This document shows positions 6,249 to 63,395 of a stretch of 64,000 nucleotides of DNA, one piece after another. This DNA is from a virus (Duplodnaviria; Caudoviricetes), in IMG/VR virus record IMGVR_UViG_3300005259_000074, positions 198,471 through 262,470 of that record. One strand, given 5' to 3'. Each line of letters begins with the position of its first letter. Position 1 is the first letter of the stretch. The notes below the pieces were generated by a model. The model did not search any database. It saw only the letters and a program-made list of their open reading frames with translations, and was not told the DNA's origin. The translations under genes were made by a program, and so were the position numbers.

Positions 6249-6773
6249 TCAGATGTCTTCGATCTTATTGATGATGAGCTCTTCGCTGATCTTTGGGAAT
6301 ACTTCGAAAATGAACTTCATCAAACTATCTCCGTCGAACAGTCTAGGCATTTTTCCGATTGCGAAGTTCATCGTCACTTCTAGTGTTTCTTCATCATAAC
6401 CACCGCGGAGGATGATGATGCTGATGTCTTTTAGAGTTCCAGTCTTAAGAGCATTCTTGTTCATCTCGCTGACAATGCTCTGTTTTATTGCTAACTTAAG
6501 ACATAAGTTGAAATTTTCAAGATTGTCGCTGTCCATGTTGAAATATAAGACCGTCACTCCAGCGCTTCTTAAAGTCTCGATGAATTTTCCGATGTCATCT
6601 TGCGCTGGTTGTTTATTCACGATGGCATAAGAAGTACCAGGGAAACTAACGTAGGCGTTTCCAGAAGGAAATGTAGTGTAGCTGTTAGAGGGAACAGTTA
6701 TGTAATGAGAGAATATACTACCACTAATTGCGGAAGTGGTTGTTACCGGAGAAATGTTATTCTGGAGTGCCAT
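6249..6773 (-). CDS. Hypothetical protein ending in KIEDI motif
   Basis: 174 aa ORF in operon; S/T-rich N-terminus. Confidence 0.65.
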   Translation of the reverse strand: MALQNNISPVTTTSAISGSIFSHYITVPSNSYTTFPSGNAYVSFPGTSYAIVNKQPAQDDIGKFIETLRSAGVTVLYFNMDSDNLENFNLCLKLAIKQSIVSEMNKNALKTGTLKDISIIILRGGYDEETLEVTMNFAIGKMPRLFDGDSLMKFIFEVFPKISEELIINKIEDI

Positions 6774-7404
6774 CTGGTTTGTTAATCTTTCTGAGAACTC
6801 TAGTGACCTTATCTACGTTGTCGTAGCTGAGTGCTTTGTACAATCTTCTAGTCAACTCTATGTCGAACATCGCATCGTGAGACGCGTTCAACAATTCTTC
6901 GTCTGACACTTTCTCGACGATGCCGACCATCGAAGCGACGTTGTACACAGTGATGAGCTTGAAGTTCGGCATGTCTTTTCTGATCGATTTCATGAACTCA
7001 CCAGCCAGGCTCATCACATCTAGCGGAGGAGTCCATATAAATCTGCCGAAATCTGAGTCGAACTCAGTGAACAACTTACGCATGAACTCGTTGTCGAAAC
7101 CGACGTTGTATCCGACCAAAAAGTACTTGTCTCTGCGGTCAGCAGAATCGAGATGACCTTTGAAAATCTTAGTTAGAGCTGCGACGGCGTCTTTCTTAGG
7201 TTGATACTTCGATAGGCTCTCGTGGGTTATCTTAAAATTCTTTGTCACCCATTCATCGATGAACACGTCTGGACCTGGATCCATCTTGACATCGAACTTC
7301 TCCAAGATCTTATCATCTTCTTCGATTATCCCGGCGACTTGCCAAATACCACATACCGCCCTGTCTGAACCTGTCGTCTCTGTGTCTAGGTGTAAGTACT
7401 TCAT
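6757..7404 (-). CDS. DEDDh 3'-5' exonuclease (DnaQ/DexA-like)
   Basis: DTETTG, VGYNVGFD, HDAMFD motifs. Confidence 0.92.
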   Translation of the reverse strand: MKYLHLDTETTGSDRAVCGIWQVAGIIEEDDKILEKFDVKMDPGPDVFIDEWVTKNFKITHESLSKYQPKKDAVAALTKIFKGHLDSADRRDKYFLVGYNVGFDNEFMRKLFTEFDSDFGRFIWTPPLDVMSLAGEFMKSIRKDMPNFKLITVYNVASMVGIVEKVSDEELLNASHDAMFDIELTRRLYKALSYDNVDKVTRVLRKINKPDGTPE

Positions 7405-7417
7405 CGTGTGTTCCTTG

Positions 7418-8269
7418 TCAGTTGTTGTTCCAGAGCCACTCGAAGAATTTGTCTCTGCTTATCGGCGCTTTTCCTTCAGTCATTCCCGAGATGTCCAAGA
7501 AAGGACTCCCGTCAGTGTACACTGGAGGCATGTCAATCCTAGGTAGTTCTACGGGGATGAAAGGCTTCTCCAGCATCTTGTTCACTAGGTCAAAATCTCT
7601 CTCGTAGATGTGGAGAGACACCGCATGGTGTGTGTACGATCCCAATTCCAAATCACGATACGACGGAAGCAGCTGTTTCCGCATGACCTGCATCAGGTAC
7701 AGGAAGAACGGAATGTCAAAACAAGTGCCGAGCACTGCGTCGTTAGACCTCATGATAGTCGACAAGTTCAACTTGTTGTCTCTGATGTTGAACACCGCAT
7801 TGAGAGTGCACACGAAGTCTTTGACACCAGGATAAGATACTTTCGGTTTGTTGAACCTAATGATAGCTTGACGGGTGTCTTTATCGTCCACTAGACTTCT
7901 GTACGCCCAAGTCCATTCTGTCAGACCGTGTTCGTTCTTCTCGTTGAAGATCAATTTACCGTAAGCAGAATTGCAAGTTCCATCTTCGTTGGCTATCTTC
8001 TTCCAGAACTTCGAGTACTTCTCGATGAACTCTAGGTCATTCCTCCCGGAGAAGTACCAGAGCAACTCGCCTTTCAAGTACTTCATTGGGATAGACCTGA
8101 CTTCGTTCTCGAAAGAATTGCTCCAGCAGTCATCTATGTGGATGACGGCATCAGTTATCTCGCGTATCTTCATCCCTCTCGGGGATGTGACGAAATCGGG
8201 CTTGTTCATTATCTCATTCAGCGCGCATCCGTAAGCTTCCGCGAACGTCTTCCCTCTTATCTCTCTCAC
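7418..8269 (-). CDS. Thymidylate-synthase-superfamily enzyme with dCMP-type specificity (dCMP hydroxymethylase/hydroxylase-like)
   Basis: TSPRG, NSAYG, DTRQA, catalytic FVCT, RSNDAVLGTCFD with Asp at the E. coli ThyA Asn177 position, YTHHAVSLHIYE. Confidence 0.85.
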   Translation of the reverse strand: MREIRGKTFAEAYGCALNEIMNKPDFVTSPRGMKIREITDAVIHIDDCWSNSFENEVRSIPMKYLKGELLWYFSGRNDLEFIEKYSKFWKKIANEDGTCNSAYGKLIFNEKNEHGLTEWTWAYRSLVDDKDTRQAIIRFNKPKVSYPGVKDFVCTLNAVFNIRDNKLNLSTIMRSNDAVLGTCFDIPFFLYLMQVMRKQLLPSYRDLELGSYTHHAVSLHIYERDFDLVNKMLEKPFIPVELPRIDMPPVYTDGSPFLDISGMTEGKAPISRDKFFEWLWNNN

Positions 8270-8802
8270 CAGCGTTTCTCCTCTGCTATCTGATCGAGTA
8301 TCGAATCTGCTATGTCACGCGGTGAAGAACTTAAGTCAGTTCTCACGGTGCGAAGATAGAACGGGCTGTGCTTGCAGAACACCGAGAATTTGCTCTGTAG
8401 TAGATCAATGTCTTTCACTGGAGGAGCAGTCTCGCCTCGAGATAGATGCCGCTGATGGACTATCTCCGGTTTGCACTCGACAAAGACGAGAGCGATGGGT
8501 AGAGATTTCCAGTGTTCTTCCAGACCTCGCAAATATTCTGGGTACCTATCTCTGTACTTCGGCCCGTACACGTACTCACCGGCCCATGCTCTGTCTAAGA
8601 CCAAGTTGCCTTCCATGATGTTGATCATCTCGAACAGCATGTCGAACTGGCCGAACTGGAAGCCGTACTTCTCTTCGACAGAGTTTCCTTTTGGGAAGGC
8701 GAAGTGGAACTGCTTTGCGTTCAGCGATCCGATCAACTCAGAGCAGATCGAGCTCTTACCCGAGCAGTCGACTCCCTCTAACACTATAGTCCTAACAGGC
8801 AT
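8266..8802 (-). CDS. dNMP (thymidylate-like) kinase
   Basis: IVLEGVDCSGKSS P-loop, LDRAW..EYVYG. Confidence 0.9.
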   Translation of the reverse strand: MPVRTIVLEGVDCSGKSSICSELIGSLNAKQFHFAFPKGNSVEEKYGFQFGQFDMLFEMINIMEGNLVLDRAWAGEYVYGPKYRDRYPEYLRGLEEHWKSLPIALVFVECKPEIVHQRHLSRGETAPPVKDIDLLQSKFSVFCKHSPFYLRTVRTDLSSSPRDIADSILDQIAEEKRW

Positions 8803-61735: not shown

Positions 61736-62728
61736 ATGATTGACGAGAAGAGCATCAGAGAAAGATTAGAAATCGCGGCAACTAAGTCTTTTGGTAGGCC
61801 AATGTGTAAGAAAGACGTCGAGCTAGCCGAACGCGTCGCTAAGTTGTACGCTGATCTTCCTCCGGCTTATGGTAAGTTATCAGTCGTCAAGATTCTCCAC
61901 GGTTCCGCGAAGACTATGAAGAACCGACCCGAATATGGCTGGAGCAAATCCAACGGATACAAGCTCAAAGAACTCGACGAATGGAACGGCATCGTAGATA
62001 CCGTCCGGAATTTGCTACGCGAGAACATAGACGAGAAAGAAGTCGCTTACGTCAACGCTTTCGATGAAATGGCTGGGGAAGAATTGATTGAGAACGCAAT
62101 TCGTCGGAAGTTCAACATGTCGGAGAAGGGTCAAGCTTTTGCGAGCAATGCTGAAGAAAAGAAGGGTTTCTCGACAGCATACTCAGTATTGACGGATGTC
62201 TTCTCAAAGATTGCAGCTTCGACTCCTGAGGAAATGATTGCCAAGCCGAAGAAGATCCGGCCAGCTGTCGCGCTGTCTCGCATACTGACACTTGACTATG
62301 TTAAAGACACTCTTAGAGAACTCAGAGAAGCACAAGAAAAGGGACTACTTCGTGTGTCTATATGGGGTGGTCCTATCCACGGTATGAATGTTGTTCCAGA
62401 ACTCATTGATTTCAATGGAAAGGTGAAAGAGTTCATCCACAATCTTAGTCAAAATTCTAAGAAAGTCGATAAACACGACACCGAGTACTATTTCATGATG
62501 GGGATTGCTGTAGAGAAAGAACCTCGCCATTTTTACCAACTGGTGCACGTCTTGACAATCAGAGATGACATCACTCCAGTTTCAGTCAGGCGAGAATACT
62601 GGTTACAGATGGGATACAGCAACATCATTGATCACCCATATGACATTCCTTTCAGCGAGAATGACCTCGAAAAACCTGAGAATCCAACTGTTAACAAGAA
62701 TCCCTTTAAAGAAAAATGGTTAAGATAA
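61736..62728 (+). CDS. Hypothetical protein
   Basis: 330 aa ORF with GAAGGA RBS. Confidence 0.75.
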   Translation: MIDEKSIRERLEIAATKSFGRPMCKKDVELAERVAKLYADLPPAYGKLSVVKILHGSAKTMKNRPEYGWSKSNGYKLKELDEWNGIVDTVRNLLRENIDEKEVAYVNAFDEMAGEELIENAIRRKFNMSEKGQAFASNAEEKKGFSTAYSVLTDVFSKIAASTPEEMIAKPKKIRPAVALSRILTLDYVKDTLRELREAQEKGLLRVSIWGGPIHGMNVVPELIDFNGKVKEFIHNLSQNSKKVDKHDTEYYFMMGIAVEKEPRHFYQLVHVLTIRDDITPVSVRREYWLQMGYSNIIDHPYDIPFSENDLEKPENPTVNKNPFKEKWLR

Positions 62729-62747
62729 CCAACATTCGGAGACGAAT

Positions 62748-62989
62748 ATGAATGAAGAGAGACTCAAGAGAGCTGTAAAGAGGTCCTCGCTAAGACGGCG
62801 AAGCTAGCTTTTCCGTCGACTCCCCCTTACTCATTCGAGGAATGTATGCATAAGAAGAACAACTGGAAGAGGATTAGTAAGAGGAACTCCGGCTCGCACT
62901 CGATCCGCGAGTTCGAGGTCTACGGAAATCACGCGCTGATCGAAGACGATGGGACGAAGGTCGTCAGCGTGAAGTTCTATGTGAAGTGA
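62748..62989 (+). pseudogene. Frameshifted small gene (or programmed -1 shift at GTA AAG)
   Basis: Frame 0 MNEERLKRAVK stops at 62807; the -1 frame continues EVLAKTAKLAF... to TGA 62989. Confidence 0.5.
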
Positions 62990-63195
62990 TGGCTCCGACA
63001 AAATACATATTGATGGTCGACCACGAAGTAGAAGGTTGGTCTGTGTAAGATTACGTGGAGCAGGACTACAATGAAGCGATCGCGGATTACTTGTCGTGGA
63101 AAGATGAATACCACTTGGAGACTAGGTTGTTAGTAGTCAGCAAAGAATTAGACGAGTCCGAAATCAGGATCGCAGTGAAGATCGGAGAACTGTGA
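62989..63195 (+). pseudogene. Small gene with in-frame TAA at 63046
   Basis: MAPTKYILMVDHEVEGWSV*DYVEQDYNEAI...RIAVKIGEL; both ends overlap neighbouring genes. Confidence 0.55.
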
Positions 63196-63395
63196 ATCGG
63201 TACAGAGTATACTCGGCAGATAGCAACGGTCAGAGGCACTCTGAGTGTTTTCTTACTACTGCAGCAAGAGCTGTGAAAGAATACCGCACGGTGAAGGAGC
63301 TCTTCGCGAAGACTACGCTGTTCGTCGATGAAGTACCTTGGCCTGAGGAGAGATTCGATGAACTCCTGATCGAGGAGAAAATGAAGGACATATGA
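63192..63395 (+). CDS. Small hypothetical protein ending EKMKDI
   Basis: GTGA/ATGA overlaps on both sides. Confidence 0.6.
   Translation: MNRYRVYSADSNGQRHSECFLTTAARAVKEYRTVKELFAKTTLFVDEVPWPEERFDELLIEEKMKDI

Follow-up and report, generated by a model that had tools for sequence, protein, structure and literature searches.

Why would proteins unrelated in sequence end in the same few residues? The question is raised by a stretch of viral DNA, 64,000 nucleotides long (Duplodnaviria; Caudoviricetes; positions 198,471 to 262,470 of IMG/VR virus record IMGVR_UViG_3300005259_000074) and called the window below, in which accessory proteins of diverse kinds terminate in an acidic segment, K-[LMI]-E-[ED]-[IL], directly followed by the stop codon. 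A preliminary description of this DNA offered two explanations for this segment, the tail: a C-terminal docking, degron or localisation signal, or the trace of a translational-coupling or recombination junction. The analysis below establishes that the tail is enriched, anchored exactly at the C-terminus, selected at the level of the peptide, portable between proteins, conserved in relatives and separable from the Cys-rich scaffold on which it is most often found. On balance, we lean towards the view of a portable recognition helix at the C-terminus of non-late accessory proteins, for which a single shared partner in the cytoplasm would be the reader. The virus record is one contig of 262,470 bp with a GC content of 48.7%, and the window is its final 64 kb. 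The record encodes T4-type genes for a family B DNA polymerase, a gp46-like SbcC, topoisomerase II, large terminase, DnaB-like helicase, UvsX and ligase, as well as a gp44-like clamp loader and a T4-type head protease gp21 (at 116.9 kb of the genome). Because the closest DNA polymerase in phage records and IMG/VR contigs is just 31-38% identical, the source is, to judge from these genes, a distant, uncultured T4-like jumbo phage. Genes were called with our own greedy codon-score caller, yielding 427 genes at 91% coding density, 89 of them in the window.

The full tail spans 11 residues, with the consensus [DE]-x-x-Phi-x-x-K-[LMI]-E-[ED]-[IL]-COOH at the exact C-terminus (Phi, hydrophobic; the last residue is position 0 and those before it are counted backwards), and a longer, 14-residue consensus reads A-x-x-[DE]-A-x-Phi-x-x-K-[LMI]-E-[ED]-[IL]-stop. 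The strict four-residue pattern [ILM][EK][ED][ILM]-stop closes 62 of the 427 genes, where its internal frequency of 65 in 77,599 positions predicts 0.36 (binomial p ~1e-115). This genome-wide comparison of C-termini with internal positions, which the preliminary description had proposed as a check, thus comes out strongly in favour of enrichment. A 14-residue matrix, with its threshold of 6.47 set to pass 1 internal window in 2000, identifies 134 of the 427 genes as carriers (0.2 expected), 15 of them among the 89 genes of the window (p ~1e-33 for the window alone), although the matrix was trained iteratively on C-termini and its counts are to that extent circular, a caveat from which the strict pattern count is free. 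About one third of the phage's proteins are tailed by this measure. All 134 matrix matches lie at offset 0 from the last residue and none at offsets 1-3. Of the 134 carriers, 128 end in I, L or V, the last five residues read K-Phi-E-[ED]-Phi in most, and both Pro and Gly are depleted over the last 11 positions. The tail helix is acidic and amphipathic: Lys and Glu flank the hydrophobic residues at -7, -3 and 0.

Such a pattern could also be a by-product of translational coupling, or of a DNA- or RNA-level junction, with GAG-GAN-NTA-TGA supplying both a Shine-Dalgarno (SD) word and the ATGA overlap with the next gene, or with microhomology for cassette shuffling. Several features point in this direction. 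Stops of the type [AGT]TGA end 100 of the 134 carriers as compared to 148 of the 293 other genes (p 3e-6, odds ratio 2.9), in overlapping carriers A or G is strongly preferred as the third base of the final codon and of the codon at -3, and SD-like words in the tail are located -9 to -7 of the following start. Given this third-base bias in overlapping genes, the motif is also part of the next gene's ribosome-binding region. However, 34 carriers lack such a stop, and 46 have no nearby downstream start (11 are convergent with their neighbour, 27 are followed by gaps above 60 nt and 8 by gaps of 16-60 nt); the carriers at 29802 and 57217, singled out early on as lacking an overlapping start, are indeed followed by gaps of 74 nt and 81 nt. 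Moreover, K, E and D codons at the conserved tail positions follow genome usage (at -2, GAA 44 and GAG 64 with 51 and 57 expected, p 0.17), and Asp (GAC or GAT) at -1 breaks the SD word in 35 carriers. Where no start overlaps (34 carriers), codon choice is close to that of the genome at each tested position (all p > 0.03), with marginal deviations at most (p 0.04-0.06 at three Leu/Ala positions). Conversely, the C-termini at 63 non-carrier ATGA junctions are unrelated to the motif and their SD-like words lie at -17 to -11, as compared to -12 to -9 for free-standing genes, and the conserved residues at -10 to -4 fall outside any SD. Orthologues in a related phage differ synonymously as well: across 36 pairs, the last five codons hold 32 synonymous and 68 non-synonymous differences, so there is no identity at the DNA level. 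The near-identical DNA endings of three genes, to which the preliminary description had drawn attention, stay within the ordinary codon variety of the motif. From these comparisons of codons and junctions we conclude that selection acts on the peptide, with coupling as a secondary overlay. Coupling alone is largely refuted as the cause, and we regard a by-product of this kind as extremely improbable. Of the two original explanations, the protein-level signal is hence the favoured one, while the other survives as a third-base imprint.

Two groups of proteins carry the tail. The larger one, with about 92 of the 134 carriers, is a single expanded family of Cys-scaffold proteins of 65-110 residues that have N-x-C near the start, a C..C-x-[FY]-[FY]-E..C core and C-x-[CNS]-x-x-A ahead of the terminal helix; 71 were assigned by a body-only model (last 14 residues removed) or by BLAST links, and 21 by motif. 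The body-only model recovers 74 small Cys-scaffold proteins, 69 of which are tailed. The remaining 42 carriers, referred to as non-family, fall into 40 sequence clusters that include two-transmembrane (two-TM) proteins and orphans of 174, 371 and 402 residues. The initial impression that unrelated proteins share the tail is therefore right for these ~42, whereas Cys-scaffold paralogues make up roughly two thirds of all carriers and, within the window, 8 of 15. The listing of Cys-rich, membrane and large orphan proteins among the carriers was accurate, as exemplified by the Cys-scaffold family, the two-TM protein at 48025 and the 402- and 371-residue orphans. In a conservative non-family set of 285 proteins, Phi-[ED]-x-Phi forms the end of 28 (1.4 expected, p 5e-27), and positions not used for this selection repeat the motif, with K at -4 (p 1e-7), Phi at -7 (p 5e-4) and an acidic residue at -10 (p 6e-9). 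Because these unselected positions recur in non-family proteins, the 11-residue unit is portable. The carriers of the window and, listed last, one borderline ORF are given here with their matrix scores:

6249-6773, minus strand: 174-residue orphan in the replication gene cluster, non-family, ending NKIEDI; matrix 18.2; 22-nt gap to the next gene, without ATGA overlap.
28796-29152, plus strand: 118-residue CxxC-rich protein, non-family, ending IHLEQL; matrix 15.2; final gene of a GroES-like/ClpP-like operon, with a convergent neighbour.
29802-31010, minus strand: 402-residue orphan, non-family, ending RKIEDL; matrix 14.3; paralogue of 31265-32380.
31019-31258, minus strand: 79-residue protein, non-family, ending IELEKI; matrix 15.1; just 2 Cys and no scaffold motif.
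31265-32380, minus strand: 371-residue orphan, non-family, ending DSIEEL; matrix 17.5.
48025-48390, minus strand: 121-residue predicted two-TM protein, non-family, ending TALEEI; matrix 15.7; TAA stop, downstream gap 34 nt.
54944-55192, minus strand: 82-residue Cys-scaffold member, tail KKIEGI; matrix 19.4; matched by the body-only model.
55209-55433, minus strand: 74-residue Cys-scaffold member, tail YRIELL; matrix 19.1; matched by the body-only model; TAG stop, 16-nt gap; a foreign homologue (P0090, 60% identity) is tailed as YKIELL.
57217-57516, minus strand: 99-residue Cys-scaffold member, tail KKLEDI; matrix 26.2; aligns with the family.
57513-57806, minus strand: 97-residue Cys-scaffold member, tail EKMEEI; matrix 27.4; ATGA overlap with the next gene.
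58501-58731, minus strand: 76-residue Cys-scaffold member, variant tail EVLKEL; matrix 13.8; matched by the body-only model; gap 35 nt.
58976-59242, minus strand: 88-residue Cys-scaffold member in a short, 9-residue helix form, tail RKMEEI; matrix 26.1.
59318-59533, minus strand: 71-residue Cys-rich scaffold-like protein with 6 Cys, tail AKIEEI; matrix 18.2; gap 75 nt.
59603-59851, minus strand: 82-residue Cys-scaffold member, tail LKMEEM; matrix 23.7; TAG stop; first gene behind a sigma-70-like promoter pair (60023-59996 and 59936-59909, minus strand).
63192-63395, plus strand: 67-residue protein with 1 Cys, non-family, ending EKMKDI; matrix 15.6; the next called gene is convergent.
63055-63195, plus strand: 46-residue open reading frame (ORF) ending VKIGEL; borderline, with matrix 6.1 against the threshold of 6.47.

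Direct translation reproduced the C-termini quoted in the preliminary description for the minus-strand sites from 6249 to 59603 and for EKMKDI (plus strand, stop ending at 63395). Three entries needed correction: the KIGEL placed at 62989 is the 46-residue ORF at the end of the list and falls below threshold, the mini-ORF DEKIEE (59244), which overlaps with a called gene and does not end in a hydrophobic residue, is no carrier, and the carrier at 28796-29152, ending HLEQL, had been overlooked. Database searches with the carriers returned little. Pfam and PHROGs gave no family for 20 carriers; in the window, neither library yielded a family for the non-family carriers scanned (6249-6773, 29802-31010, 31265-32380, 48025-48390 and, by Pfam, 28796-29152). 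When compared with phage records by tblastn, the 402-residue and the 371-residue orphans found no match, and among 5.8 billion proteins the 402-residue carrier matched only itself. A word-index protein search with the family and the 402-residue carrier likewise gave matches from this genome only.

Within the Cys-scaffold family, the tail is in register with the body of the protein. The AlphaFold2 (AF2) family model predicts a terminal helix with a mean predicted local distance difference test (pLDDT) score of ~90 across the final 18 residues, and in the short-form member at 58976-59242 the C-terminal helix comprises residues 77-87 (AF2 with family alignment, pLDDT 80). In this genome and in foreign homologues, 9, 13 or 17 residues separate the C-x-X-x-x-A motif from the C-terminus in nearly all cases, so that the length of the terminal helix varies by steps of four. 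These spacings correspond to whole helical turns, so the family tail keeps its face relative to the body. It could therefore be that no external reader exists, and that the helix is an element of the Cys fold which illegitimate recombination in the arrays has copied to neighbouring genes as a harmless or stabilising cap. The helical register and its confident prediction agree with such an origin, as do the family membership of two thirds of the carriers and the location of most non-family carriers in or beside arrays. On the other hand, the whole 11-residue pattern, with positions that a cap does not need, persists in some 40 independent non-family clusters, carriers far from the arrays are tailed as well (6249, 29802-32380 and 48025 in the window), orthologues in a related phage retain the tail despite diverged bodies, and family homologues of other phages fold without it. 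A neutral leftover would also not stay exactly terminal in 134 of 134 cases. We thus consider a structural remnant rather unlikely. Fold searches with the family AF2 model gave no PDB match below E 2.5 in Foldseek and TM-scores of at most 0.45 in the ESM Atlas; a homodimer prediction for one family member (alignment A1) scored 0.02 against a mark of 0.42, a value that counts neither way on binding; and AF2 of the 174-residue carrier from a 2-row alignment (pLDDT 40) gave an unusable model.

The relatives allow body and tail to be told apart. An exhaustive profile search collected 120 family proteins, 80 small ones of which are foreign to this genome; the tail is kept in 67 of the 80 and absent in 13. 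The most informative relative is a 14.7-kb Joint Genome Institute (JGI) contig, L030, which is syntenic with 56-69 kb of this genome and has the tail on 38 of its 44 genes. Its helicase and tail tube match ours at 93-100% identity, whereas identity drops to 27-84% for the miniproteins; its tails pass the matrix all the same, despite the codon differences noted above for 36 orthologue pairs. The orthologue of 6249-6773 on another contig (L045, 67% identity) keeps the tail as NKMENI, and short ENA contigs have it on family members and on one membrane protein. Tail-less homologues are single genes in unrelated phages (L047:10001-10225 and L026:10001-10234). One example lies in a lambda-like 38-kb phage, where its neighbours are an SMC-like ATPase and RecT, and another on a 190-kb phage contig with 31% GC; neither the lambda-like nor the 190-kb locus contains a tail-positive ORF. 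Since such single tail-less copies occur in unrelated phages, the Cys mini-domain is, by its sequence distribution, older and wider than the expansion. Likewise, as 13 homologues have the scaffold without the tail, the two are separable, and the tail is restricted to one lineage. Among IMG/VR relatives found via the DNA polymerase (best match 38% identity), just 1 of 1348 ORFs in those loci was tail-positive, and a degenerate DNA probe combining scaffold and tail hit 13 sites in this genome, 0 in IMG/VR and 6 chance sites in JGI metagenomes without tail ORFs; it thus revealed no additional lineage in these two collections, from which records very close to this genome may have been missing.

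If the tail is recognised, on which side of the membrane would this occur? The carrier at 48025-48390 has predicted TM segments at residues 44-62 and 83-101, with the tail 20 residues past the second. The presence of K/R after the last TM segment, as compared to 0 in the 15 residues before, suggests that this tail is cytoplasmic. Because K/R residues follow the last TM segment in most two-TM carriers, their tails are probably cytoplasmic, too. These features enter the model that we cautiously favour, a recognition helix with one shared reader. According to this model, the phage lineage would place the tail on its non-late accessory proteins, that is on ~92 fast-evolving Cys-scaffold miniproteins and ~42 others. 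The tail would have to end at a free C-terminus to be recognised, and we infer an external cytoplasmic reader that senses the free carboxylate. One shared partner would read the helix, gripping its hydrophobic stripe (-7, -3, 0) and a negative cluster formed by Glu at -2, Glu/Asp at -1 and the terminal carboxylate. Through this reading, all carriers would share one fate or location, apart from the capsid route that is served by the N-terminal T4-type leader. The amphipathic character of the helix, with its hydrophobic positions flanked by Lys and Glu, and the coexistence of membrane-anchored and soluble carriers could alternatively indicate an oligomerisation helix that pairs the same or different carriers, for example by tethering miniproteins to membrane carriers. 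With about three hydrophobic positions, the tail is short for a coiled coil, and strict anchoring at the last residue is foreign to coiled coils, which makes this alternative quite improbable.

Which class of genes carries the tail? The late-promoter word TATAAATA is found within 3 kb upstream on the same strand for 0 of 134 carriers, as compared to 36 of the 293 other genes (p 8e-7), and sigma-70-like promoters head the miniprotein array of the window. The carriers fit a class of non-late accessory genes, as far as promoter sequences tell. Divergent sigma-70-like matches, TTTACA-16-TATATT, are present on both strands at 59900-60190 of the window, between the minus-strand array and the plus-strand genes starting at 60207. 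A second terminal peptide exists in this genome, a T4-like capsid leader, MSKF-[QE]-[ED]-L, on 10 proteins, none of which is tailed. Two of the leader proteins, of 154 and 258 residues, are adjacent in the window (52595-53835, plus strand) and begin MSKFQEL; eight more are encoded elsewhere in the genome. As leader proteins are never tailed, the capsid route is already served by another tag. In T-even phages, the internal proteins IPI, IPII, IPIII and Alt share a terminal capsid targeting sequence (CTS) (PMC3012670), which is the closest described analogue of the tail: in both cases, a short terminal address peptide is the only feature common to diverse, fast-evolving small proteins of a T4-type phage. 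The CTS, however, is N-terminal (~10 residues), is read by the scaffolding core, cut by gp21 (L/I-x-E) and marks late head cargo, whereas the tail is C-terminal, occurs on ~134 genes including those of membrane proteins, none with TATAAATA nearby, and never shares a protein with the CTS-like leader. By analogy, the tail could be the C-terminal equivalent of the CTS and bring carriers into the phage head to be injected; like the T-even internal proteins, which are diverse and share only their targeting peptide (PMC3012670), the carriers are small and fast-evolving. Given the separate N-terminal leader on at least 10 untailed proteins, the missing late-promoter word, the membrane proteins among the carriers and the implausible number of more than 130 cargo species, we judge head loading very improbable.

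A further group of genes near the carriers relates to proteolysis. On the plus strand of the window, a GroES/Cpn10-like gene (27298-27621) is followed by a gene for a ClpP-like serine peptidase (27596-28234), which is additional to gp21, has a Lys/Arg-rich C-terminal extension and conserves the Ser-His-Asp triad when compared with solved ClpP chains. A stand-alone C39-like cysteine peptidase of 197 residues (29134-29727, minus strand) is the last gene after three non-family carriers; its Cys, in Q-x-x-x-x-D-C-G, aligns with the PCAT1 peptidase domain, and its His (GHYVV) and Asp (EDP) were judged by eye to be conserved. The GroES-like, ClpP-like and C39-like genes lie directly beside four non-family carriers, with the operon ending in one and facing three. 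In this setting, the tail could be a C-terminal degron for the timed removal of (probably early) accessory proteins by a host AAA+ protease, possibly together with the phage ClpP-like peptidase, which would be a special case of the shared-reader model. The intact triad of this additional peptidase, the arrangement of its operon and the non-late promoter class of the carriers are in line with such a role, and the exact C-terminal position is typical of degrons such as ssrA. Bacterial C-terminal degrons (ssrA via ClpX, ClpA and SspB; MuA-type signals) resemble the tail in that they depend on a free C-terminus, are portable and are read in the cytoplasm. They differ in ending in non-polar or basic residues (LAA, RRKKAI), whereas the phage tail is a helix that carries Glu and then Glu/Asp just ahead of its last residue; the C-terminal signals of ClpX, ClpA and Tsp are non-polar, and charges near the terminus are usually stabilising. 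The tail thus shares the terminal position of ssrA-like and ClpX signals and shows neither their non-polar LAA-like nor their basic-hydrophobic end. In addition, Clp-type unfoldase models gave nothing significant against the phage proteins, and the ClpP-like gene does not track the tail, as far as can be said of homologue phages whose proteins were not checked for it. The linkage between the protease cluster and the tail is weak, because ClpP-like homologues are common in other phages, such as T5-like Klebsiella phages. In sum, a degron seems unlikely to us.

Two related candidates were considered. The ClpP-like gene was rejected as a marker of the tail, its homologues being common in phage groups without a described tail (proteins not checked for the tail). 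C39 domains bind amphipathic acidic leader helices, and the C39-like peptidase was therefore considered as a reader; the carriers lack a Gly-Gly site and the adjacency is weak. The tail might also be the constant plug of an adaptor repertoire, by which ~90 hypervariable Cys-scaffold binders and ~40 other proteins, each gripping a different host target, would hand these targets to one hub, for example a host AAA+ protease with the phage ClpP-like peptidase. Such a repertoire would be the counterpart, in a bacterial virus, of the F-box/PRANC adaptor families. In close relatives, the bodies have diverged much further than the core proteins have, while the tail keeps its motif. We hold this proposal to be improbable.

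Returning to the shared-reader model, we compared the tail with other C-terminal docking signals. The EEVD-COOH end of Hsp70 and Hsp90, bound by tetratricopeptide repeat (TPR) clamps, likewise combines terminal acids with hydrophobic anchors, and [MI]-E-E-[IL] resembles the MEEV and IEEV of MEEVD and IEEVD. The tail, however, lacks the terminal Asp, its last residue being I, L or V in nearly all carriers, and it forms an 11-residue helix, whereas TPR ligands are bound extended; the TPR_12 model had no match in the phage. Class III PDZ ligands ([DE]-x-Phi-COOH) fit the -E-x-Phi-COOH end, and E(-2)-x-Phi(0) is present in 125 of 134 carriers, in a segment predicted helical, as opposed to the beta-strand of PDZ binding; a PDZ_2 search of the phage proteins found no encoded domain. 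The clamp-binding tails of T4 gp43, gp33 and gp55 provide a precedent for C-termini of unrelated proteins docking into one hub. They are hydrophobic, rich in Leu and Phe, and limited to a few replication and late-transcription proteins, whereas the present tail is acidic and borne by one third of the proteome. Among phage proteins, a few head proteins are known to bear short address peptides at a terminus, and the tail looks like an undescribed address or docking label. Several points weigh against a single shared reader. The searches with TPR_12, PDZ_2 and Clp-type unfoldase models revealed no reader in the phage, more than 130 proteins would have to compete for one site, an awkward arrangement if the reader is not abundant, and acidic C-termini are, to our knowledge, unlike known bacterial C-terminal signals. 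Furthermore, the 9/13/17 spacing sets the helix in phase with the Cys-family body, where it may be part of the fold rather than a free label, and part of the pattern does serve coupling, carriers being enriched for overlapping starts (odds ratio 2.9).

With regard to its genomic setting, the repertoire recalls the hyperplastic small-ORF regions of T4-type phages and jumbo-phage expansions, which also consist of tandem arrays of small, fast-evolving accessory genes and include expansions of Cys-rich mini-domains, though the scale is different here, with ~92 paralogues and ~42 other carriers. We know of no hyperplastic small-ORF region with a described terminal tag that has also spread to unrelated genes. 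A lineage-specific jumbo-phage expansion of comparable kind comprises the ~35 zinc ribbons of Bacillus phage G (PMC7824862). Nine tRNA genes (Gln x3, Pro x2, His x2, Cys and Arg) are located between two Cys-scaffold gene groups of the window (54704-56551, minus strand), of which tRNA-Cys stands out in a genome encoding ~100 Cys-rich proteins. About nine proteins share a Ser-rich N-terminus, G-F-V-S-N-S-S-S-S (for example, G000:C1:64971-65981 and L022:11645-13186); some adjoin radical-SAM/SPASM genes (L020:13693-14580, L022:9386-10456), and none is tailed. The genome's proteins are also on record from a 313,637-bp contig, as compared to the 262,470-bp record, which is classed as 'provirus'; ~51 kb taken for host DNA may have been cut off, although host DNA is unlikely for a T4-like lytic phage. 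Directly 3' of the gp44-like gene, where T4 has gp62, lies the gene of a 162-residue tail carrier (G000:C1:92161-92649; L022:14162-14647), for which a PHROG search gave no match. Should this carrier correspond to gp62, the tail would be present on a core replication protein as well.

One C-terminal label extending over about one third of a proteome and ~40 unrelated families would imply that a single reader governs most accessory proteins of this phage. Identifying that reader would link more than 130 orphan proteins to one common step in a single stroke, and would also yield a short tag, of 11 residues, with which proteins could be directed in infected cells. Moreover, the reader would show how a T4-like jumbo phage manages its fast-evolving repertoire of miniproteins.

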